DNA from: a virus
Taxonomy: Duplodnaviria > Caudoviricetes
Virus record (IMG/VR): IMGVR_UViG_3300037249_000698
Coordinates: 1-64,000 of that record
Strand: one strand, 5' to 3'
Length of the DNA stretch: 64,000 bases
Part shown: piece by piece, positions 1 to 63,291 of the stretch
Layout of the letters: each line of letters begins with the position of its first letter
How positions within the stretch are numbered: position 1 is the first letter of the stretch
The notes under the pieces: model-generated
What the model saw: the letters and a program-made list of their open reading frames with translations, nothing else
What the model was told of the DNA's origin: nothing
The model's database searches: none
Translations under genes and position numbers: made by a program

Positions 1-85
1 TAGCAACTCCTCTAACTGTATTCTGAAAACGGTTAAACCTAAATGATAACCGTTCTTAAAATCAGGAGATGCAAATCGTAGTGGA

Positions 86-292
86 TTATCCTGCATCTTT
101 TATTACCACCTCAAATGCTTTATAATTATTTACATTTCTTATTTGCTTAAAATCTACCACGCAGTTTCCGTACTTACGCATCATCCAAAAAGCAACAAAT
201 TTAACTGGCATTGAAAAACTATATTGTTTGCTTTCGGTGTAAACCACGATATAACAATCGTAATATTTGTTTATAAATTCCCAAAACGTCAT
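86..292 (-). CDS. hypothetical protein
   Basis: ORF coupled to upstream gene, operon orientation. Confidence 0.6.
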   Translation of the reverse strand: MTFWEFINKYYDCYIVVYTESKQYSFSMPVKFVAFWMMRKYGNCVVDFKQIRNVNNYKAFEVVIKDAG

Positions 293-2211: not shown

Positions 2212-2314
2212 AATTTTACTTCCTTTGTTTGTGTTAAAACCTTTATTTGTGACTGCTCTCACCTCAACATTTACCACCTAACATCAAGGCGAGAGACTTA
2301 TTCTTTAATATCCT

Positions 2315-14275: not shown

Positions 14276-14364
14276 TGGCGGTGAGTGCAGGGATCGAACC
14301 TGCAAAACGCTTTTCAACGTTTACGGATTAGCAATCCGCTGTAATACCATTATACGAACTCACC
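14276..14364 (-). tRNA. tRNA-Ser(GCT)
   Basis: cloverleaf, long variable arm, GTTCGA, encoded CCA. Confidence 0.9.
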
Positions 14365-14370
14365 TGTTAA

Positions 14371-14458
14371 TGGCGGTAGATAAAGGACTCGAACCTTTAA
14401 GCCGTTTCCGACAGACAGTTTTCAAGACTGTTGCATTTACCAACTCTGCCAATCTACC
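14371..14458 (-). tRNA. tRNA-Ser(TGA)
   Basis: ACAGT-CTTGAAA-ACTGT, long variable arm, CCA. Confidence 0.92.
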
Positions 14459-14465
14459 ACATCGG

Positions 14466-14608
14466 TAATGGTTAGTGTGGATTCTATCGGCTGATCGTTT
14501 CCAATCCTACCACTGTAATATCCATGTACCCTATATTACGTAATTCAAATATTTAGGATATTACATTATCTTATCCTCTGCAATTTTCTACGGAGGCTCT
14601 AACCATTA
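14466..14608. ncRNA. candidate multibranch structured RNA
   Basis: closing stem TAATGGTTAG/CTAACCATTA plus three internal stems. Confidence 0.45.
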
Positions 14609-14644
14609 GTATGCACTATCGTATTAAACAATAACGCATAGTAA

Positions 14645-14747
14645 TGGTGGGGCGTACAGGAATTGAACCTGTTATTACCTCCCTCTCTTTGTACTTAAAC
14701 AAAGAAGAGATAACGGAGATGATGATAACCATTGTCACTAACGCCCC
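14645..14747 (-). ncRNA. tRNA-like RNA with extended anticodon arm
   Basis: perfect acceptor stem+ACCA and T-arm; no canonical anticodon loop. Confidence 0.7.
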
Positions 14748-14820
14748 AAATATCCGTTGATTACACTGGCTCAACGGAAAGCCTTGATAACCACAAGCAA
14801 TAAGCAAATGGTCTAGTAAA

Positions 14821-14905
14821 TGGTGGAGAGAGGTGGAGTCGAACCAACCGAACCACGAGGGAACAGATTTACAGTCTGTCGCATTTACCGTTCTGCAATC
14901 TCTCC
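14821..14905 (-). tRNA. tRNA-Tyr(GTA)
   Basis: ACAGA-CTGTAAA-TCTGT, CCA. Confidence 0.9.
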
Positions 14906-14907
14906 TA

Positions 14908-14982
14908 TATCACAGCGATAGGAATCGAGCCAACGACCTATGGTATCTTCAGTCCATCGCTCTACCATTGAGCTACATCATC
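14908..14982 (-). pseudogene. degenerate tRNA-Phe(GAA)
   Basis: intact D-arm TAGCTCAATGGTAGAGC and CTGAAGA loop; broken T-arm/acceptor, no CCA. Confidence 0.6.
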
Positions 14983-15065
14983 AATTTATCGTGTACGGTT
15001 ATTTTTCACGATGATACCGCAAAACATCTCAATGCCTTGATTGCAAGAATCAAGTCCTCTTAAAC

Positions 15066-15141
15066 TGGCTGGGGCAGGTGGGTACGATCCACCGCATGAC
15101 GGTATCAAAAACCGTTGCCTTACCAACTTGGCTATACCCCA
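15066..15141 (-). tRNA. tRNA-Gln(TTG)
   Basis: ACGGT-TTTTGAT-ACCGT, CCA; atypical T-loop ATCGTAC. Confidence 0.88.
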
Positions 15142-18324: not shown

Positions 18325-18817
18325 TTTCTTCTCCTTTGTAATTAGCCAATTCGTGAATCTTTTTCAGAAATTCCTTTCTATGAGTCAAAACCTTTTTCGT
18401 TTCAAAAAAGTCGATAATATCCCAAATCTGAATAGCTAACTTATCAGCACACATATCAACATACATACAAATATCGTGTAAACAGCTTTTCTTTTCATCA
18501 AGCGTTTGAGGTGTGGTGCAAGCACTGGCTATAACAGGTCTTGAACCGTTTAACAATCCTATCATGTGATTGTATGTGTAAAACAAGTCAAAAAGGTATT
18601 TCTGATAATCGCCTGTCGCATGATTAAGTTGTTTTCTCAAAACGTCACGCTGTTGTATCATTTGCTTTTCTTGATAATCAATTTCATCAATGATGTGATT
18701 TATTGCTCTATCATAATCAAAATCTTCCGTAGCATCCAACCACCACTCATAGATGTTATTTTCCAAATCGCCCCAAAAATTTCTATTGTTTGCAAGTATT
18801 GAAATCTGTTCTAACAT
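18317..18817 (-). CDS. hypothetical protein
   Basis: operonic ORF. Confidence 0.7.
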   Translation of the reverse strand: MLEQISILANNRNFWGDLENNIYEWWLDATEDFDYDRAINHIIDEIDYQEKQMIQQRDVLRKQLNHATGDYQKYLFDLFYTYNHMIGLLNGSRPVIASACTTPQTLDEKKSCLHDICMYVDMCADKLAIQIWDIIDFFETKKVLTHRKEFLKKIHELANYKGEEND

Positions 18818-40664: not shown

Positions 40665-40920
40665 GTTATTCCAGAAAAAACATAAAATTTAATACAGGGA
40701 CTATAAATTATTTGAAACAGGATAATTAAAACCAAAAACGGATTAAAAGTTATATTATAAAAATTACCATAAAGGGATTATAAATTATTCAGATAAATAT
40801 AAATAATTGTGTAAACGGATTAAATTTTAAAGGGATTTTAAAAATTAAAAGTCAAGTAAATTAAATCAAAAATTAGATAAAAGTCACAAAATATTTTGAA
40901 TGATAAACGGATTATTAAAT

Positions 40921-40983
40921 TGTGCATAAAGTCACAAAATAAATTAAAAAGTAATTGCAATTTGAATTTAATTTAATTATAAT
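40921..40983 (+). promoter_or_regulatory. promoter with CRP-like site at -61.5
   Basis: TGTGC-N6-TCACA; TTGCAA-N17-TATAAT. Confidence 0.75.
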
Positions 40984-42748: not shown

Positions 42749-43096
42749 ATGACATTATATGAAGAACTTTACAAAATCGTGAAAGAAAAAAAGGTTAAAG
42801 TCTGGAATTTTGCGGGTAATACTTATGAGTTCACCCATTTTACAGGGAATCATCATTATCAGGTTAGACTTGCTTATGTGGGTAAATATTACGATGAGTA
42901 TTTGACGACAACTCATATTGTAAAATTATCTAGACATAATTTTGATTACATTATCAAAAAACTAATGTATCAAATTATCAGAAACACTTTAAGAAATTCC
43001 GCACAAGTTCGCTTTAATGTTTATTACGCTAAACAAAAACTTGTGCAAGTTCACAGCTCTACAGGTGATTTTTACGGATGGAAAAAACCTGAGTAA
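42749..43096 (+). CDS. basic hypothetical protein
   Basis: TAAGGAG RBS. Confidence 0.75.
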   Translation: MTLYEELYKIVKEKKVKVWNFAGNTYEFTHFTGNHHYQVRLAYVGKYYDEYLTTTHIVKLSRHNFDYIIKKLMYQIIRNTLRNSAQVRFNVYYAKQKLVQVHSSTGDFYGWKKPE

Positions 43097-43151
43097 AGTC
43101 ACAAAATAATCTTTTCATAGCTTGCAAGTAATATGCGAGCTATGATAGAAT
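43088..43151 (+). promoter_or_regulatory. promoter with CRP-like site and inverted repeat
   Basis: CCTGA-N6-TCACA; TTGCAA-N18-TAGAAT; TCATAGCTTGCA/TGCGAGCTATGA. Confidence 0.7.
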
Positions 43152-43182: not shown

Positions 43183-43389
43183 ATGAACAGTAACAACAGT
43201 ATGCCGTATAACGCTTCAGTAGAAAAAACAGGAGTGATCTTGACTCTCATCGGTATGATAGCCGGCTTTTTTATCATGCTTTACGGCTTGGCAGTAAATA
43301 ACGCTTATATCGGCTTGATCGGGTTATTCCTTAGTTTAGGTGTATTCATGTTAATGCCATTATTCTACAAGTTGGCTAAAATATTGTAA
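43183..43389 (+). CDS. two-TM membrane protein
   Basis: hydrophobic; TAGGAG RBS. Confidence 0.75.
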   Translation: MNSNNSMPYNASVEKTGVILTLIGMIAGFFIMLYGLAVNNAYIGLIGLFLSLGVFMLMPLFYKLAKIL

Positions 43390-47076: not shown

Positions 47077-47340
47077 ATGATTATGCTTATTGTAATTTTA
47101 TTGGTTGTAGTTTTACCATTTACAATCTTTTATGCTTTTGCATCTTCCGACCCAAGTGCGTGTGCTTTTACTATAACAGGCGTTATTATATGCCAGTTGC
47201 TTGACTCTGCATGTGGAACAACAGTATTTTTTCTAATTGTCGGCTCTATGTTTGCTTGGTGTTTTTACGTTATCGGTCAATTTTGTTATGACGCTTACAA
47301 AAATTACAAAAAAGGCAAAAAATGGTTCGATATTGGCTAA
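47077..47340 (+). CDS. membrane protein
   Basis: three hydrophobic stretches. Confidence 0.65.
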   Translation: MIMLIVILLVVVLPFTIFYAFASSDPSACAFTITGVIICQLLDSACGTTVFFLIVGSMFAWCFYVIGQFCYDAYKNYKKGKKWFDIG

Positions 47341-47379
47341 AAATACTTGCAAAACATTTTTAATTTGTTATAATAGCTA

Positions 47380-47461
47380 TATCAAAGTTCATATTTTGAT
47401 ACTCCTTATGTGAAGTTGTTTGTGTTATACCCACGGTCGCTTTTTGGCTGTGGGTTTTTTT
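47380..47461 (+). ncRNA. candidate sRNA with anti-SD/anti-AUG and GU-rich seed
   Basis: own promoter 47347-47374, G-U-containing terminator, no ORF. Confidence 0.65.
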
Positions 47462-47486
47462 ATATTTTGACGTTATATAATTCCAT

Positions 47487-47519
47487 TTGCTACTCTAATT
47501 GCTACTCTATTTGCTACTC
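47487..47519. repeat. 3x TTGCTACTCTA tandem repeat
   Basis: direct repeats upstream of lysis promoter. Confidence 0.8.
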
Positions 47520-47617
47520 AATTTACCCTTTAAAAGCGTTTTCTTAAACATAGTGTATAATATCCGTATAAAGATGTGTTAATAGTCGATAAATTATACG
47601 TAATAAGAGGTTGAGAG

Positions 47618-48112
47618 ATGATTTTTAGTAGCAAGATTCCTGACGATGGTAAAAAAGCATTATTGCAATTACAACAACAGTTCGGATGGTCAGAAGATCA
47701 ACTCGATTACCTTATTGCTTGTATGAAATTCGAGTCAAATCTTAATCCGCAAGCCGTAAATAAGGCTTCGGGTGCTGTGGGTTTGATTCAGTTTATGCCT
47801 AGTATCTGTAAAGCATACGGCACAACCGCAGAACTTATGAAATCTCGCTCTTTTGCCGAACAGATACCTTACGTTAAAAAGCATTTTCTCCCTTATTACA
47901 AACGTACTTGCACCCTTTCCGATATGTATATGGCTATTCTTTATCCTAGCTGTATCGGTAAGCCTGACGATTATCCTATGTTCGTCAACGGCAAAAAATA
48001 TGAACAGAACAAAGGTCTTGATAAAAACAAAGATCATATAGTCACAAAAATCGAGGCTACTCTTATGGTTTTAAAGTGCTATGAGCAAGGTTTGCAAGAT
48101 AGAGGACTATGA
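47618..48112 (+). CDS. endolysin, SLT-type lytic transglycosylase
   Basis: KFESNLNPQA, GAVGLIQFMP. Confidence 0.88.
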   Translation: MIFSSKIPDDGKKALLQLQQQFGWSEDQLDYLIACMKFESNLNPQAVNKASGAVGLIQFMPSICKAYGTTAELMKSRSFAEQIPYVKKHFLPYYKRTCTLSDMYMAILYPSCIGKPDDYPMFVNGKKYEQNKGLDKNKDHIVTKIEATLMVLKCYEQGLQDRGL

Positions 48113-48443: not shown

Positions 48444-48976
48444 ACTGGTTAAAAATTCTCCCACAGGCTCTACTCGGTGTTACTTGGCTCATTCTGTTCG
48501 CAACCGGATATTACATGGGGTCAGACGCTACTAATCAGCGTAATGAACTTAAACAGAGCCAAATTACTAATGATTATCAGAATAAAATTAACGAACTTGT
48601 TGAACTTGTACGTTCACAGGAAATTGCAAATCAACACAAAATAAACACTATTATTTCAGAACAGCTTGAAAAAGAGGAGATGATTAAAAATGACTACGAA
48701 AACATTATTGAAGATTTGCGTAATAACACACTTGTTGTTGATGGGTTGCACGAATGTAAAGACAGTTCAAACACCAAAGCAGATATGCCCCGAAATAAGC
48801 CAGTTACCGCCGAACTTGTCTGTTTTACAAAAGCCGATTTATACGGAAAAATTGAAAAAAGTTTGGCTATCACAGCCGAATGTGACAAAGTAGTTGAGAA
48901 ATACAATGCTCTGCTAAAGGTCTATAACGAACAATTTAACACATTAAACCATAAAGAGGCTTTATATGGAAAATGA
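48440..48976 (+). CDS. i-spanin (Rz-like)
   Basis: N-terminal TM + coiled coil after holin. Confidence 0.8.
   Translation: MNWLKILPQALLGVTWLILFATGYYMGSDATNQRNELKQSQITNDYQNKINELVELVRSQEIANQHKINTIISEQLEKEEMIKNDYENIIEDLRNNTLVVDGLHECKDSSNTKADMPRNKPVTAELVCFTKADLYGKIEKSLAITAECDKVVEKYNALLKVYNEQFNTLNHKEALYGK
48690..48893 (+). CDS. o-spanin (Rz1-like lipoprotein) embedded in Rz
   Basis: AGGAG RBS, lipobox LLMGC, Pro-rich, +1 frame. Confidence 0.8.
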   Translation: MTTKTLLKICVITHLLLMGCTNVKTVQTPKQICPEISQLPPNLSVLQKPIYTEKLKKVWLSQPNVTK

Positions 48977-49439
48977 TATTGTACTAAAAAACAAGGAAGT
49001 CTCTGAACGTGAGAGATTACTGTTTGATGAGTTTTTAGAGGAATATAAAAAAGATTATGACCCCGAAAGAGCCTGTTTACGTCTCGGCGTTGAGCCTGAA
49101 AGCGTAAATAGGGCATTGTTATATTTCTTTCAATCATCGTACGTGCAACAGCAACTTGCAAAAGATGTTGTTTTGGGTAAACCTGATACACAGGAAAATG
49201 TCGATAAGGCGTTTAAATACGTTGTTAATAAACTTCGTTGTATCGCAGATTCAGGCTCAAATAAAGAACGTTTAGAGGCTTGTAAACAGCTTGCTCTTAT
49301 CTACGGTCTTAACAAGCCTATTGACATTCGTACAAATAATTCACTTACAAATGTTATTATGTCACCTGCCCCTATTACTGATGCTGAATGGGAAGAACAG
49401 GCAAGCGTGACTATGGAGGCAAATTTTGACGGACACTAA
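48966..49439 (+). CDS. terminase small subunit
   Basis: F.EEY..D.D..RAC.R.G; precedes TerL. Confidence 0.75.
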   Translation: MENDIVLKNKEVSERERLLFDEFLEEYKKDYDPERACLRLGVEPESVNRALLYFFQSSYVQQQLAKDVVLGKPDTQENVDKAFKYVVNKLRCIADSGSNKERLEACKQLALIYGLNKPIDIRTNNSLTNVIMSPAPITDAEWEEQASVTMEANFDGH

Positions 49440-49546
49440 TCTTGGTGACCTTTTGATTTTCTTTGCAATAGTTTTTATAGGAATTTTAATTATAATAAAT
49501 TTAATCGACAGCATGAAATAGTCGATAGTCACAAATAAGGTGAGAA

Positions 49547-51196
49547 ATGGCTTTTAAGTTACCCGATAATATCAACGTTGTTTGGAAACCGTTAGAGGGT
49601 CGAGTTATTAACGGTAAGTATTACATGAGTTCGCAGGAACTTGTGCTGTCCTGTAATTGTGATACTATTTTTATGTCAAGTTCTCGTGCAAGCGGTAAGA
49701 CAGAAGTCAGTCTTATCAAATTCTGCCTCCCTATCGGCATGGGTTACGGTTCATATTATCGAGGTGTTTACATTGATATGCACTACAAAGACTTGAACGA
49801 TGTTATTGCACGTTCAAAACGTCTTTTCCCGATGATTTATGGTAACAAAGCACGATATTACAGTTCAAGAGGTGATGAACATTGGACTTGGGATACAGGC
49901 GAGGAATTGTGGTTTAGACAAGGTGCAACCGATGAGGACTACAATTCTTTCCATGGTCAGGAATTTGCCGTTATATTGTATAACGAATTGTCTAAAAACC
50001 CTACTCCTGACTTTTTCGATAAAATGCGTACAACAAACCGTACATCATTTAATCCTTATGACCATCCGTATTACATTGACGCTAAATATTATAAAGAATA
50101 CGGCATCGAAAGGCGTGTAAAGCCTGAACATCCGTATGCGGTAAAGAAATTTTTACCACCACTTAGACCAAAAATAATTATAACAACCAACCCATCCGGT
50201 GCAGGCAAGCAGTGGGTCAAAGAGCGTTTTGTTGACCCCGCCCCTGCTGGCAAGATTGTGAAAACAGAGATTAAAGCCTATAATCCGCAAACTAAAAAAG
50301 ATGAGATTATGGTCAAAACACAAGTTCACATATTCAGTTCGTATAAAGAAAATACACATCTTTCACCTGAATATGTACTCGAACTTGAAAGCATTAAAGA
50401 CCCTGAACTTAGAAAGGCGTGGTTATACGGTGATTGGAACGCTAGTTACGGTGATGGTATGTTTAATGATATATTCAGAACATCAATTCACGTTGTTCCG
50501 CAATTTAAAATTCCTGATACTTGGAATATTTATACAGGATTCGACTGGGGTTGGTCAAAACCGTTTGCAACTTTGTGGCTTGCTGTTTCCGATGGCTCTG
50601 ATATAGTTCTGCCTAGCGGTGCTAAACGCCGTACAGTTCGTGGGGATATATTCATAATTAACGAATACTACGGTTGTGTTAAAGGCAAGGCTAATACAGG
50701 TGTTTGTATGCTTGCTAGAGATGTCGGTAGAGAAATATTAGAACGTGAAATCGGTCTTGGTTATAAGCCTAGAATTGTTGCTAGTATCGCTGATAATGCT
50801 ATTTTTAGCAAGGAAGATGGTCACTGTATTGCAGATGAAATGAGAAAACCTGTTAATATAGCAGGTAAAATTATGGGTGGTAAAACTTGGATTGGTGCTG
50901 ATAAACGAGCAGGTTCGAGAGCCGTTGGTTGGAACTTAATAAAGCAACGCCTTAAAAATGCTGTTCCTGAAACTGACGTTGTAACAGGCGTTACACTACC
51001 TAGAGAAGAAAAAGGCTTGTTTGTTTGCGATAATTGTAGAGATTTTTTAAGAACTTTCCCTAATCTTCCTAGAGATGAAAAGAAAGATGGCGATATTGAT
51101 ACAAGTACCGAGGATCACTTAGCGGATGCTTTACGTTATGCGGTATCATACATCGACCACGGTGAACGTTCTGTATCTACTTACGGCATGAATTAA
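49547..51196 (+). CDS. terminase large subunit
   Basis: RASGKT, TTNPSG, AWLYGDW, GFDWG, EDHLADALRY. Confidence 0.93.
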   Translation: MAFKLPDNINVVWKPLEGRVINGKYYMSSQELVLSCNCDTIFMSSSRASGKTEVSLIKFCLPIGMGYGSYYRGVYIDMHYKDLNDVIARSKRLFPMIYGNKARYYSSRGDEHWTWDTGEELWFRQGATDEDYNSFHGQEFAVILYNELSKNPTPDFFDKMRTTNRTSFNPYDHPYYIDAKYYKEYGIERRVKPEHPYAVKKFLPPLRPKIIITTNPSGAGKQWVKERFVDPAPAGKIVKTEIKAYNPQTKKDEIMVKTQVHIFSSYKENTHLSPEYVLELESIKDPELRKAWLYGDWNASYGDGMFNDIFRTSIHVVPQFKIPDTWNIYTGFDWGWSKPFATLWLAVSDGSDIVLPSGAKRRTVRGDIFIINEYYGCVKGKANTGVCMLARDVGREILEREIGLGYKPRIVASIADNAIFSKEDGHCIADEMRKPVNIAGKIMGGKTWIGADKRAGSRAVGWNLIKQRLKNAVPETDVVTGVTLPREEKGLFVCDNCRDFLRTFPNLPRDEKKDGDIDTSTEDHLADALRYAVSYIDHGERSVSTYGMN

Positions 51197-51237: not shown

Positions 51238-52839
51238 ATGTTAGATTCTGTAAATTATGAATATCTTAATATGCTTCCTTATTGGGAAAAACTTGACGAT
51301 TTGTACCGTGGGGAAGATTTTGTTAAAAAGGCAGGTGTTAAGTACCTGCCACCGTCAGCAGGTATGATTATTGACGATATGCGGTCAATAAATTCACTTG
51401 GCTTTAAAATCTATATGTCGTATATAGGCAGAGCTGATTACATCAATCATGTTAAAAATGCCGTGGATAGATATGTAGGGTTGTGCCATCAAAGTTCACC
51501 GACTATTCAACTGCCGAAAGAGATGGAATATTTGAGAGATAAGGCTACTAAAGACGGTCAATCCCTCGAAAGTCTTTTGCGTATGATTAACACCGAACAG
51601 GTTAAACTCGGTCGTTGCGGTCTGTTTGTCGATATTAGCACTGACGTTGCTAGAGATAATAAACCTTATCTCGCTTTTTATGATGCGTTCAGTATTACTA
51701 ATTGGAATAATAGCGATAATCCGTTCGGTTATACCGACCTTAATATGCTAGTTCTAAAAGAGACTGAACACGTTTTAAAAGACTTTTCTTGGACTGACGA
51801 AATTCGCTACAGAGTTTGTCTTTTAGGTGACGGACACGTTGTTAGAGGTAATGATTACTACCGTCAAGGTGTGTTTAAAGATACTGCATTTAACGACAAC
51901 CTGATGTTTACCCCTAGTTATCTCGGTACAAAATTACACGAGATACCGTTCGTATTTATCAATGCTTGTGATACCGTTACTCGCCCTGATTTTCCACCGC
52001 TTGATGATTTGGCTAATTGCTCGCTTAGTGCGTACAGATTGTCAGCCGACTATAAACAGGCATTACACATGCAAGGACAGGACACGCTCGTTATCAAGGG
52101 TAATCTGCTGAACGTTACTGAAAACGCTCCTACCGACAACAGCAAAAATGCACAAGAACAAGGTATCAGAACAGGTGCAGGTGCGGTATTAAACGTTGCT
52201 TGTGATGGAAATGCTGAATTTATCGGCGTTAGCGGTGACGGTATTCCCGAAATGAGACAGGCTCTTGAAAACACCTATAATCGTTGTGAGGTTAAGAGTG
52301 GTAACTTGCTGACTAATGGTGCTACATTTGAAAGCGGTGAGTCATTAAAGACTCGTCTTACTGCTCAAACAGCCAACCTTAATCAGATTGCTCTTACAGG
52401 TGCGTTTGGTCTGCAAAAAGCATTACGCTTTATCGCTCGTTGGATTGGTGCTAACGAAGATGAAGTTGTTGTTCAGCCTAATCTTGAATTTAGTGATTAC
52501 CGTATCACAGGTGATGATTTGGTTAAGGTTACAACTGCTATCAAGCTCGGTTTCCCTATGTCATTACAATCCGCATACGAATATGCACAGTCTAAGGGTT
52601 ACACTAAAGAACCGTTTGAGACACAGATTGATATGATTAAAAAGGAAAAAGAAAGCGGTTTGAGAGATTTGCTTATGCCACCTGAACAACAGTTTGCGGA
52701 AAGCAATAGCGGTCTAAATCCGCTGAACGGCAATAATGCAGGAGGTAGCGTTTCGGCTACAAGTGTGCAAAAGAAAACTACATCGGCTAACAAAGACTTA
52801 ACCGATGTGTCTAAAATTACAAACAATTCAAATTCGTGA
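51238..52839 (+). CDS. portal protein (DUF4055-like)
   Basis: GVKYLP, GRCGLFVD, IPFVF, ESGESL; synteny. Confidence 0.88.
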   Translation: MLDSVNYEYLNMLPYWEKLDDLYRGEDFVKKAGVKYLPPSAGMIIDDMRSINSLGFKIYMSYIGRADYINHVKNAVDRYVGLCHQSSPTIQLPKEMEYLRDKATKDGQSLESLLRMINTEQVKLGRCGLFVDISTDVARDNKPYLAFYDAFSITNWNNSDNPFGYTDLNMLVLKETEHVLKDFSWTDEIRYRVCLLGDGHVVRGNDYYRQGVFKDTAFNDNLMFTPSYLGTKLHEIPFVFINACDTVTRPDFPPLDDLANCSLSAYRLSADYKQALHMQGQDTLVIKGNLLNVTENAPTDNSKNAQEQGIRTGAGAVLNVACDGNAEFIGVSGDGIPEMRQALENTYNRCEVKSGNLLTNGATFESGESLKTRLTAQTANLNQIALTGAFGLQKALRFIARWIGANEDEVVVQPNLEFSDYRITGDDLVKVTTAIKLGFPMSLQSAYEYAQSKGYTKEPFETQIDMIKKEKESGLRDLLMPPEQQFAESNSGLNPLNGNNAGGSVSATSVQKKTTSANKDLTDVSKITNNSNS

Positions 52840-52876
52840 TAAAATTAAAGAGTTCACAAATTAGAGGTACATAATT

Positions 52877-53731
52877 ATGGCATTTAAAGATCCTAACACA
52901 AAAACTTTTCAACCTATCGTAGATTCTCTCGATGGTGTTGATGAAAACATTAAGTCGCTTTATGCAGAGACTACTGACGGTAAGTATCAAATTCGAGCTG
53001 ATATAGCATTTCAGAGCGACTTTGAACGTGTGCGTGATACTCTCACAAAAGAACGTACAAGTAATAAAGAGTTAAACGCAAAACTGAAAGAATTACAGTC
53101 TAAACTCGATGCTTACGGCGGTATCGACCCGACAGGCGTAAAGGGTATGCAGACTGAACTCGCTAACCTTAAATCTACCGAAACTGATTTGAGCAAGATT
53201 AAGTCTAGTAAGGCAGATTTAGAGTTGCAGTTTAAAAACTTAAAAGAACAGTTTGATGAACTCTCTAAAATCAATCAGCGTTACGAAAAAGAACGTACTG
53301 AACAGCGTCTAAAAGACAGTGCTAGAAAGGCGTTTGGTGATAACGGCATTTTAGACAGTGCTATGGAAGATGGTCTGTTATGGGCAACACAGGTACTTGA
53401 AAGTGCCGAAGATGGCTCTGTAAGAGTTAAAGACGGTACTAAATATCCTGCCGGGGTAAGCGTTGACAGTTGGGTTCAGCTTTTCAAGAAAGACAAGCCA
53501 CATCTTTTCGGTGGTTCTGTCGGTGGCGGTGCAGGCGGTAGCGTAAGCAATTCAATAGAAATTGAAAACTGGACTAACACAGGTCTTGATGGTGGCATCA
53601 ACATTACTAAGTTAGCACAGGCAATTAAGGAAGATCCAAAGGCTGTAGTTGCCGTTGCAAAGGCTAAAGGACTTGAAAAGGTGTTAAGAGAACGTTACGG
53701 TTATCTCTATAATCAAATCGCTGATAAGTAA
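52877..53731 (+). CDS. capsid scaffolding protein
   Basis: coiled coil, PHLF..GGGAGG. Confidence 0.8.
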   Translation: MAFKDPNTKTFQPIVDSLDGVDENIKSLYAETTDGKYQIRADIAFQSDFERVRDTLTKERTSNKELNAKLKELQSKLDAYGGIDPTGVKGMQTELANLKSTETDLSKIKSSKADLELQFKNLKEQFDELSKINQRYEKERTEQRLKDSARKAFGDNGILDSAMEDGLLWATQVLESAEDGSVRVKDGTKYPAGVSVDSWVQLFKKDKPHLFGGSVGGGAGGSVSNSIEIENWTNTGLDGGINITKLAQAIKEDPKAVVAVAKAKGLEKVLRERYGYLYNQIADK

Positions 53732-53750
53732 TTTATAATCTAATGTTTTT

Positions 53751-53778
53751 AAGCCGATACTTAGTTATCGGCTTTTTT
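53751..53778 (+). terminator. intrinsic terminator
   Basis: AAGCCGATA/TATCGGCTT + T run. Confidence 0.85.
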
Positions 53779-53808
53779 GTTTATACTATTTATCGTGTAT
53801 AATAAAAA

Positions 53809-53856
53809 TACTCCTTTATTTGTGACTTTTGGGGTTGAGAAATCAACCCCTTTTTT
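53809..53856 (+). ncRNA. candidate ~48-nt anti-SD sRNA
   Basis: TATAAT 53798, TACTCCTTT, terminator GGGGTTGA-gaaa-TCAACCCC-T6. Confidence 0.55.
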
Positions 53857-54016
53857 AACAAAAATACCGCTTTTTTCAGAAAATTTAAAAGTGTGATATT
53901 ATAGTATCTGTTACGAATACGTGATGTTGAGTAGCAATCTTCGGTGCGTGATGCTAAGAATGATTTAATAAAGTTATTTTTTGTTTTAATGTTATTTTTA
54001 TAGGAGATGGCTACTC

Positions 54017-55042
54017 ATGGCTACAACTCGTTTACAAGACCTTATCGTACCCGAAGTGTACGAGGGTTATCAAACCGATGAAATTACTCGTAAGTTAAAT
54101 CTTATTCAGAGTGGAACTGTTGCTCGTTCTGAAAAATTGGACTCTCTGCTTAACGGCGGTGGTGCTACCTTTAATTTCCCATTCTATAACAACCTTTCTG
54201 ATAGCGGTGAAACTATTGCTACCGATAATCCTGCTGACGTTATCGTTCCTGAAAAGGCAAGTGCTAGTAACTTAGTAGTTGCTCGTTGCGTTCGTACAGC
54301 ATCTTGGGAAGTAGCCGACATTGACGAAATGCTGACCGCAGACGATCCAATGGCATTTATCAGCTCTCGTACCTTAGATTTCCGTCTTGGTTGCTTGCAA
54401 AAGCAGTTCATGTCTGTTGTAAAGGGTATTTTCGCTAACAACGCCACTGCAAGCGATGATTATCATACTCAAAATGACCAACGTTGGGTTGTTTCAGGTA
54501 CTACCTATTCCGCAGGTGTTACCGATTTCAACGTAAATCATCTTATTGACGCAATCTCTCTCATGGGTGATGCACAAGATGGTTTCGGTATGATTATGGT
54601 TCACCCAACTGTATTTGCTAACATGCAGAAGCAGGATATTATCGACACTCGTATTCCTAGCGGTGCATCTGCTCCTGTTCGTTACTACAACGGCTATCAG
54701 ATTATTCTGAATCAGGATCTTCCTAATACTGGCGGTGTTTACTCAACCTACATCTTTGGTCGTGATCAGTTCAAGCTCGGTTTCGGTTCAGTTAAAGAAC
54801 CAATCGCCTTTGAAAAACATCAGGCACAGGGTAATGGTTACGGTGTTACTACTATGTATAACCGTTGGTGTAACGCTATTGCTCCAAAGGGTTACAGCTA
54901 TATTGGTAGTGGTTTCGCTGTGGGCGGTCCTGCAAACGATACTACTAACGGTGCTTTGTCTACCGCAAGTTCATGGCGTAGAGTATGCGGAGATAAGCGT
55001 TCAGTCAAGATGGTTGAACTCGTAACTCGTGAAACTGCATAA
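54017..55042 (+). CDS. major capsid protein
   Basis: MATTRLQDLIVPEV, FPFY, MVHP; synteny. Confidence 0.9.
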   Translation: MATTRLQDLIVPEVYEGYQTDEITRKLNLIQSGTVARSEKLDSLLNGGGATFNFPFYNNLSDSGETIATDNPADVIVPEKASASNLVVARCVRTASWEVADIDEMLTADDPMAFISSRTLDFRLGCLQKQFMSVVKGIFANNATASDDYHTQNDQRWVVSGTTYSAGVTDFNVNHLIDAISLMGDAQDGFGMIMVHPTVFANMQKQDIIDTRIPSGASAPVRYYNGYQIILNQDLPNTGGVYSTYIFGRDQFKLGFGSVKEPIAFEKHQAQGNGYGVTTMYNRWCNAIAPKGYSYIGSGFAVGGPANDTTNGALSTASSWRRVCGDKRSVKMVELVTRETA

Positions 55043-55107: not shown

Positions 55108-55134
55108 GAGAAGTCATAGATAAGAGAGGCTAAA

Positions 55135-55641
55135 ATGCTGTCAATAGAAAGAGCGTATAACTGGGTTAAGACTCGCCCTGCCGAAGAATACAATGCGATG
55201 AAGAATGATTTAGATAGTGCTACCGCAACTATCAGACGAATTTTTAGGGATAATAACATTCGTAAAGAATCAGTCGAAATCATGTTCACCGCTGACGATG
55301 AGCTTGTTACCACTAAAAAGCTGATTGAAGAAGAATTAGTTAATGTTAATGAAAAGCTGTTAGCTATTGAAAACGAACGTGAAAAGCTGACTAATAAGCT
55401 GACAATGTTAAACTGCATTATCAAGGTTAATAACGTTGTGGTTAATGACGAACGTGAACGTAGAGAACGCACTCGCATTTTACAGGCACAGGCTAAAGAG
55501 GCTCAAAAGGCATTTTTGTTAAAACAGCAGGAACTTATTGCTAAAGAATTAGGCATAGCAAAGACCGAGGTTGAATTACCTCAAACTGAACAGAAAACAA
55601 AAAGAAAGAAGTCAATGGTAAAAGAAAATGGCTCTGATTAG
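55135..55641 (+). CDS. coiled-coil hypothetical protein
   Basis: ORF with GAGG RBS. Confidence 0.7.
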   Translation: MLSIERAYNWVKTRPAEEYNAMKNDLDSATATIRRIFRDNNIRKESVEIMFTADDELVTTKKLIEEELVNVNEKLLAIENEREKLTNKLTMLNCIIKVNNVVVNDERERRERTRILQAQAKEAQKAFLLKQQELIAKELGIAKTEVELPQTEQKTKRKKSMVKENGSD

Positions 55642-63233: not shown

Positions 63234-63291
63234 ATTTTGTGTTATAATCTTAATACTATAATTTTTTATTCACAAATTTACGGAGATTGTT

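Follow-up and report, generated by a model that had tools for sequence, protein, structure and literature searches.

Between the scaffold gene and the capsid (major head protein) gene of this phage lies an intergenic gap of 285 bp which holds, after the scaffold terminator, a compact unit on the plus strand (53796-53856), called unit B below. Positions are those of the window, meaning the whole 64,000-nucleotide stretch of DNA that was analysed, unless given as genome positions. Head genes assigned with PHROGs are listed in Table 1 together with the other features. The left arm carries primase, helicase and Cas4-like exonuclease genes on the minus strand, and five tRNA genes are clustered at 14279-15141 on the same strand. 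The window is the first part of a 95,133-bp source contig (34.6% G+C) whose ends repeat each other: window positions 1-127 correspond to genome positions 95007-95133 (offset 95,006), and a count of 12-mers over the genome found those of 11-112 again at 95017-95118. This repeat indicates an assembly overlap of a circular or terminally redundant complete genome; given the overlap of about 127 bp, the genome is probably complete, circularly assembled and about 95,006 bp long.

GenBank phages gave no nucleotide match to this phage and a top capsid protein identity of 40%, and no relatives were found in GTDB genomes. Its relatives are contigs of rumen type from IMG/VR and JGI metagenomes; among them, L001 represents the same phage, and the capsid proteins of L002/L044 and L008 are 76-80% identical to that of this phage. 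The host is clearly Shine-Dalgarno (SD)-dependent and has sigma-70-type promoters.

Table 1. Genes, predicted signals and candidate pairing sites, in window coordinates.
Feature	Position	Strand	Remarks
Small terminase	48966-49439		PHROGs
TerL	49547-51196		PHROGs
Portal	51238-52839		PHROGs
Scaffold	52877-53731		PHROGs
Major head protein (capsid)	54017-55042		PHROGs
Scaffold intrinsic terminator, upstream boundary of unit B	53751-53780	+	Hairpin 53751-53774 and T run; relatives keep the position, with different sequence
Putative promoter -10 region TGTATAAT	53796-53803	+	No recognisable -35
Predicted RNA 5′ end and single-stranded seed ACUCCUUUAUUUGUGACUUUU	53810-53830	+	Unpaired in MFE fold
Terminator hairpin GGGGUUGA-GAAA-UCAACCCC and U6, predicted 3′ end of RNA	53831-53856	+	8-bp stem, z -2.8
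Separate promoter of capsid gene, extended -10 TGTGATATTAT	53873-53902	+	3′ of unit B; conserved throughout the relatives, also where the unit is lacking
TerL leader AGUCACAAAUAAGGUGAGAA	49527-49546	+	Directly 5′ of AUG 49547; best predicted target in this phage
Scaffold leader UUCACAAAUUAGAGG	52853-52867	+	Only predicted target in the top three of all three lineages
Leader AGUCAUAGAUAAGAGAGG of gene 55135-55641, next after capsid gene	55112-55129	+	Predicted pairing site
15-nt exact complement AGUCACAAAUAAAGG	2240-2254	-	5′ leader of minus-strand gene 1777-2211 (phrog_2480), ~30 nt before start codon
Cassette A	47347-47461	+	TTGCAA-16-TGTTATAAT, 5′ hairpin, single-stranded GAUACUCCUUAUGUGAAG, terminator with G·U pair; ~80 nt

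The putative promoter of unit B consists of TATAAT (53798-53803) with TG immediately 5′ of it. Six bases separate this TGTATAAT box from ACTCCTTTATTTGTGACTTTT (53810-53830), and the same form, TGTATAAT followed by six bases and an A, stands before late genes at 47554 and 61594. RNA beginning at 53810 would be 47 nt long, with its first 21 nt unpaired and the terminator hairpin folding at -14.3 kcal/mol. Nucleotides 1-7 of the seed (ACUCCUU) are the exact complement of the phage consensus SD, AAGGAGU, which is the commonest SD in the genome. As DNA, the hairpin (53831-53850) reads GGGGTTGA-GAAA-TCAACCCC followed by T6; stem, GAAA loop and U6 are those of an intrinsic (Rho-independent) terminator, and the same architecture is found with other sequences in L002, L008, L049 and L191. 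The hairpins at 53751-53774 and 53831-53850 each have a T run on the plus strand only, which bears out the description, in the initial annotation, of a -10 box between two terminators of which the second has a GAAA loop.

Reading the sequences directly revealed no conserved ORF in the unit on either strand. Two candidates were rejected: a plus-strand ORF from GTG 53822, whose 24-aa product is not conserved in L002, and a minus-strand mini-ORF behind AAGGAG, which has no ATG in this genome, is not conserved and, in its ATT-ATA reading, is the reversed -10 box. With a predicted promoter and terminator of its own and no conserved ORF, unit B would have the make-up of a small-RNA gene. Rfam 15, applied to the whole window at gathering thresholds, returned five tRNAs only and no match to the unit; permissive scans of 53600-54100 and 47300-47620 gave best scores of 24.6 bits against 50 and 28.1 bits against 52.

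Extended -10 boxes (TG(n)TAnAAT) with no recognisable -35, each 13-114 nt 5′ of a late gene, lie at 47554, 52837, 53894, 58402, 59572, 60136, 61594 and 63240 in the window and at genome position 70648. Early genes use TTGACA-17-TATAAT. SD usage also differs by class: the share of genes with GGAGU is 55% in the early plus-strand group (31-44 kb), 24% in the left arm and only 3% in the late group, where GGAGA or GAGG prevails. The capsid mRNA has a strongly conserved element in its 5′ UTR (53908-53972, plus strand; ..CGUGAUG..CAAUCUUCGGUGCGUGAUGCUAAGAAUGAUU), which every relative shares, even at 60% capsid identity. It has 31 invariant columns in three lineages and forms two hairpins (RNAalifold) with compensatory changes in 8 of 17 pairs, and it has no Rfam match.

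At the same scaffold-capsid junction, L002/L044 and L008 have TATAAT, a spacer of 6-8 nt, an identical 16 nt (ACTCCTTTATTTGTGA), a hairpin and a T run. The spacing from -10 to ACTCC is 6-8 nt in all three close lineages (this phage, L002/L044 and L008); the box of L002/L044 is a canonical extended -10, TGTTATAAT/TGATATAAT, and L008 keeps TATAAT. Terminator stems are unrelated in sequence among these lineages, the relatives having stems of 8-13 bp at the same place (GGGGAGAA/TTCTCCCC and GGGAGGTG/CACCTCCC). A three-way alignment of the whole gap left four invariant islands, namely the 16-mer, the capsid promoter, the capsid 5′-UTR element and the SD/ATG; terminator stems and all else had drifted. 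The extension that follows CUCCUU, UAUUUGUGA(C/A)U, is likewise invariant in the three close lineages.

Two more distant relatives keep only the CUCCUU core. L191 (64% capsid identity) has one diverged unit, TTGATT-17-TGTACAAT followed by AAAUCUCCUUGAAAUC and a terminator (L191:2570-2685, plus strand), and L049 (60% capsid identity) has two in tandem, AACUCCUUUAUGAAAG and AACUCUCCUUGUUGUC, each with its own terminator (L049:120-292, plus strand). The reverse complement of the L191 unit is a full SD-AUG start region. A clade with 70-72% capsid identity (L003-L007 and L046-L048) is without a unit at this junction. When IMG/VR was searched for the 16-mer seed and for TATAAT-N5-9-ACTCCTTTAT, the unit was found only in contigs already known, and chance hits were antisense of ordinary gene starts (...CAT-N-ACTCCTT).

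Cassettes of a second, longer type share the anti-SD sequence. Cassette A (Table 1) has both a -35 and a -10 element, and a syntenic counterpart with GACUCCUCCUAAG is present on L008's contig (L052, minus strand, ~1656-1753). On a 77-kb contig of the clade without unit B (L180, IMGVR_UViG_3300032007_000067), an A-type cassette at 18400-18520 (minus strand) lies between two small ORFs and consists of a textbook promoter (TTGACA-17-TAGTAT), a 5′ hairpin (AUAAUC/GAUUAU), UAACUCCUUGUUUAG and a terminator. (A)CUCCUU is the one core that the eight family members have in common. In the 95-kb genome, sense-strand non-coding ACTCCT or TCTCCT that is not antisense to a gene start is confined to unit B and cassette A, each followed by a terminator. 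G·U pairs in two stems (the wobble in L049 and that in the cassette A terminator) and the one-sided T runs fit the plus strand only. Cassette A has no Rfam match. Its reverse complement is a full SD-spacer-ATG region with a 10-codon frame, and the strongest pairing predicted for the cassette, at -25.9 kcal/mol, is with the region around the start of the small gene 43183-43389. Three direct repeats, (A/T)TTGCTACTC(T/A)A, follow the terminator of cassette A at 47487-47522 (plus strand), ahead of the promoter (TGTATAAT) that serves the lysozyme-like gene 47618, and look like a regulator binding array.

Taken together, the constant distance from box to seed, the invariance of the seed beside freely drifting stems, the tandem duplication and the paralogues at other loci are what marks a small-RNA gene family. 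On this comparative evidence a distinct small-RNA gene quite probably exists at the junction, and the family is likely to be one that was previously undescribed. Unit B would then belong to a small set of anti-SD cassettes of this phage group, comprising short B-type and longer A-type members.

In the 95-kb genome there are three exact copies of the 12-mer AGTCACAAATAA, at 49527 (plus strand), at 2243 (minus strand) and, in the unit itself, at 53816 (minus strand). The copy at 49527 lies 8 nt 5′ of the TerL ATG and runs into GGTGAG, and the copy at 2243 extends to 15 nt, AGTCACAAATAAAGG. Since the reverse complement of the seed is thus sense at both loci, a plus-strand RNA from unit B would be antisense to both messages. 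The initial annotation had reported these pairings, 12 nt just 5′ of the TerL RBS (49527-38) and 15 nt with the leader at 2240-2254, and both were recovered as exact matches. A 12-mer present three times was nevertheless discarded as evidence on its own, such 12-mers being common in this A+T-rich genome (106, against ~55 in order-3 Markov simulations).

Stricter comparisons were made with the 21-nt seed. With the unit masked, the genome has 3 loci with an exact complement of at least 12 nt, where simulations averaged 0.41 (P ~0.01), and a 15-nt complement arose in 0 of 300 simulations. Four of the 136 called translation-initiation regions pair with the seed at -18 kcal/mol or lower: TerL (-21.9), 8659 on the minus strand (-20.6), 55135 (-20.5) and 85535 (-18.7). 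Control seeds, in which ACUCCUU was kept and the other 14 nt were shuffled, had a mean of 0.4 such regions, and none of 300 reached four. On the 19-kb contig of L002's phage (G001), three complements of at least 12 nt were found against 0.075 expected, one of them in an intergenic stretch without an evident gene. L008's contig has no seed complement of at least 12 nt, and G002 shows no excess. The seed is accessible in the predicted fold, more conserved than the rest of the unit, and complemented beyond chance in this genome and in G001, not in G002; the invariant extension UAUUUGUGA(C/A)U accounts for the excess of long complements. A fuzzy 17-mer search allowing up to 4 errors gave 5 sites, not above mononucleotide shuffles, and therefore speaks against a large degenerate regulon.

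Two further sets of related sequences were recorded. In L002's phage, a 13-nt same-sense copy, ATTTGTGACTGTT, lies within a 72-aa ORF (L176:822-834, contig IMGVR_UViG_3300031853_000434) and may be chance or a trace of the origin of the motif. In this phage, AAAGTCACAAAATA occurs three times in early intergenic regions (40880-40893, 40928-40941 and 43095-43108, plus strand), in part inside TGTG..N..TCACA-like palindromes; GTCACAAA is common to it and the predicted target motif, and the first of the three copies is a 12-nt complement of the seed.

Variants of the leader motif were found in the leaders of TerL, scaffold, 55135, 63292 and 85535. Those of the form TTCACAAAT..GAGG/GGAG precede the scaffold gene and, at 63270, the tail assembly chaperone gene, where related leaders had been pointed out before. 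Pairing with the TerL leader is predicted to span -20 to -3 relative to the AUG. This site is missing in L002's phage and partial in L008's, where it is cut to ACAAAUAAA, and TerL as the true target is a doubtful proposition. The scaffold leader is the best conserved candidate, with predicted pairing of -16.2, -16.9 and -14.7 kcal/mol in the three phages when orthologues are compared one by one. Its pairing would consist of 8 bp, a bulge and 5 bp including GAGG, and the segment involved, (U/G)(C/G)ACAAA(A)U..GAGG, is conserved although the scaffold leaders diverge elsewhere. In the clade without unit B, no CACAAAU is present in these leaders; as presence and absence of the unit divide the phages into about two clades only, this co-occurrence counts as about a single evolutionary event and lends weak support.

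Other predicted sites vary more between phages. The G001 orthologue of the 55135 leader pairs less strongly (-14.3 kcal/mol). In L002's phage the best site is a 14-nt ACAGUCACAAAUAA, which includes the lineage-specific CAG, in the leader of a late lysozyme-like gene orthologous to 47618, so that the strongest site shifts from TerL here to the lysozyme-like gene in G001. Top-ranked sites are functionally mixed (TerL, the Cas4-like exonuclease, the sliding clamp and genes of unknown function), and mean unit-B pairing energy did not differ among early, middle and late gene classes. No convincing target was found in the 7 kb of L191 that were examined. The capsid gene's own RBS was considered as a conserved target and rejected, as its pairing is inconsistent across lineages.

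Our preferred explanation is that a late-type extended -10 promoter would drive synthesis of a non-coding RNA of ~47 nt, with an intrinsic terminator belonging to the unit at its end. The leading ~20 nt would be unstructured, starting with ACUCCUU and continuing with a lineage-specific extension, UAUUUGUGACU, and would pair in trans with phage leaders and RBSs that carry (A)GUCACAAAUAA 5′ of the SD. By nucleating on the SD-proximal leader, the free 5′ end would occlude the RBS, block 30S binding and lower translation. As candidate targets we propose, for this phage, the TerL leader and, across lineages, the leader of the scaffold gene, and output would fall for proteins needed in fewer copies than the capsid protein. 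Because the 5′ end mirrors phage RBS leaders and is kept in related phages, it probably damps translation of some late proteins. What the sequences show is how the unit is built, which of its parts are conserved, and that complementary sites exceed chance; synthesis of the RNA, its pairing and repression through that pairing are inferred. As a whole, this account of a late trans-acting small RNA that blocks ribosome-binding sites is about evenly poised between right and wrong, and occlusion of RBSs on phage messages may equally well prove correct or incorrect. Against it stand the poor -35, the lack of conservation of the TerL site and the mixed functions of the predicted targets. The suggestion with which the work began, an sRNA acting on late genes, thus holds as far as a self-contained gene is concerned, with promoter, spacing and seed kept and with paralogues; the part that concerns TerL control is weak, for the reasons of conservation given above.

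Several other explanations were weighed. The RNA could be real and its working part simply a generic anti-SD, CUCCUU, producing a broad late shut-off of AAGGAGU-type sites on early genes or host messages with no specificity for TerL or scaffold. CUCCUU as the sole core shared by the eight family members, the early bias of GGAGU leaders and the abundance of AAGGAGU would all suit this, but a 7-nt pairing is weak, the mean energies of unit B do not separate gene classes, and a generic anti-SD has no need of the 9 nt after CUCCUU that are invariant in three lineages and have excess complements; we regard it as unlikely, though worth keeping in mind. Alternatively, no small RNA is made, and the conserved block is another copy of a protein-binding site, in DNA or RNA, that is present in several leaders, with the -10 box and hairpin incidental. 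The motif does recur at non-orthologous places in two phages, and related GTCACAAAATA copies at 40880, 40928 and 43095 lie beside TGTG..TCACA-like palindromes in early promoter regions. The other copies in this genome, however, are sense to local transcription and that of the unit is inverted (the 13-nt same-sense ORF copy in G001 being the exception); it is this inverted copy that has a conserved -10 at fixed spacing on one side and a co-varying terminator on the other, and distant members keep the anti-SD and not TCACAAAT. This makes a protein site improbable. A T7-like phage RNA polymerase promoter, considered for its TCAC..AAAGGAG likeness, was rejected: the large ORFs are primase and helicase, and there is no room for a promoter at 55112.

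Tandem terminators are common after highly expressed genes, and unit B might be a backup terminator for the scaffold gene with a fortuitous -10 match; the -35 is poor, and a consensus scan listed no plus-strand promoter at the unit. Such a terminator would not need 16 invariant nt, a TATAAT at fixed spacing, the tandem duplication in L049 or paralogues with full -35 and -10 elements. The conserved seed and spacing, the variable terminators and the paralogues contradict the idea, raised earlier as the result that would undo the small RNA, of a backup terminator only, and it appears very unlikely. Hardly any more credible is a promoter-proximal terminated leader of the lambda PR′-6S RNA-tR′ type, at which an antiterminator would load for read-through into the capsid gene. 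It would explain a promoter, a short transcript and a terminator just 5′ of a major late gene, in a conserved position, but the capsid gene has a promoter of its own that is retained even in relatives without the unit, as is not expected of a Q-type leader; like units lie at other loci and in tandem, and the conserved part is an anti-SD, not a pause or loading signal. Least probable of all is a minus-strand promoter, (G/T)TCACA, 16-18 nt and TATTAT/CATTAT, from which an antisense RNA would run into the 3′ end of the scaffold gene. A scan lists GTCACA-16-TATTAT, and L002 and L008 read likewise, yet the supposed spacer, AATAAAGGAGT, is invariant, which a promoter does not require; L049 and L191 keep the anti-SD without a minus-strand -35, the transcript would have no terminator, and hairpins and T runs are directional for the plus strand.

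It also counts against the trans-acting RNA that leaders with a common motif could have arisen from one another as paralogues, and that the seed could simply be one of them in inverted form. Taking the preferred explanation further, the phage may possess a private translational control network, in which a leader motif, AGUCACAAAUAA, with an SD stands in sense orientation in chosen messages, and one inverted copy, expressed late as the 47-nt RNA, would set terminase and scaffold output against that of capsid together with paralogous anti-SD RNAs. This is a speculative extension that we hold with considerable reserve. If true, it would be an RNA counterpart of T4 RegA/RegB, and virion protein ratios could be set by RNA pairing in addition to promoter, terminator and SD strength. 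As the unit is very small, consisting of a seed and a terminator, and anti-SD cassettes recur in several lineages, it would make a compact, testable model.

To our knowledge, few phage-encoded small RNAs have been characterised, and those known are mostly concerned with immunity or directed at the host. The c4 RNA of P1/P7 and the sar RNA of P22 are small phage RNAs that block translation of a phage message by pairing across its RBS region. Processing of a longer transcript yields c4; sar is a cis-antisense RNA, its gene overlapping that of the target; and both act in immunity through control of ant. In function, unit B, predicted like them to encode a phage anti-RBS RNA, comes closest to these two and to the streptococcal csRNAs described below. 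It differs in having a putative promoter and terminator of its own, in lying in the head-assembly module, in being predicted to act late and in overlapping no gene on the opposite strand: no minus-strand gene or start overlaps the intergenic gap, as one would for a cis-antisense RNA of the P22 sar or lambda OOP type. The Rfam C4 family, included in our scans, gave no match even at permissive thresholds.

In plan, unit B resembles RybB, OmrA/B and the 53-nt prophage sRNA DicF, which consist of an unstructured conserved seed, a terminator hairpin and a U tail, with stems that vary. It shares this minimal plan, with the seed as the most conserved part, but those RNAs are Hfq-dependent, proteobacterial and unrelated to it in sequence. 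Lambda PR′-6S RNA-tR′ likewise yields a short constitutive transcript that ends at a terminator just 5′ of late genes; in the present phages the gene that follows has retained a promoter of its own, and copies of the unit occur in tandem and at other loci.

Streptococcal csRNAs (cia-dependent small RNAs) carry unpaired anti-SD and anti-AUG sequences; they are chromosomal, CiaR-dependent and ~90-150 nt long, with two stem-loops (PMC3091779). Cassette A is the member most like them, with its 5′ hairpin, unpaired anti-SD and terminator and with an anti-AUG, GUUCAUAU, upstream. Unit B has its anti-SD at the very 5′ end and is without a 5′ stem-loop: it has one stem-loop, no anti-AUG, no upstream TTTAAG direct repeat and no Rfam hit. 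With no processing context, target overlap, second stem-loop or anti-AUG, unit B is a member of neither the c4, the sar nor the csRNA group.

The predicted target motif finds its parallel in the start-associated sequences (SAS) of Cluster K mycobacteriophages, a private 13-nt motif with AGGAG that lies just 5′ of the start codons of a subset of genes of different families, nearly always in one orientation (PMC3203893). It was described at 93 sites, at non-structural genes; some genomes have a single copy on the opposite strand, and whether its reader is RNA or protein was left open by the authors (PMC3203893). In the present phage the copies are few, the sequence is another, and the one that is inverted has the surroundings of a transcription unit. 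Should the proposed network exist, RNAs of the unit B kind would be candidate readers for start-associated leader motifs (PMC3203893), possibly also for those found elsewhere.
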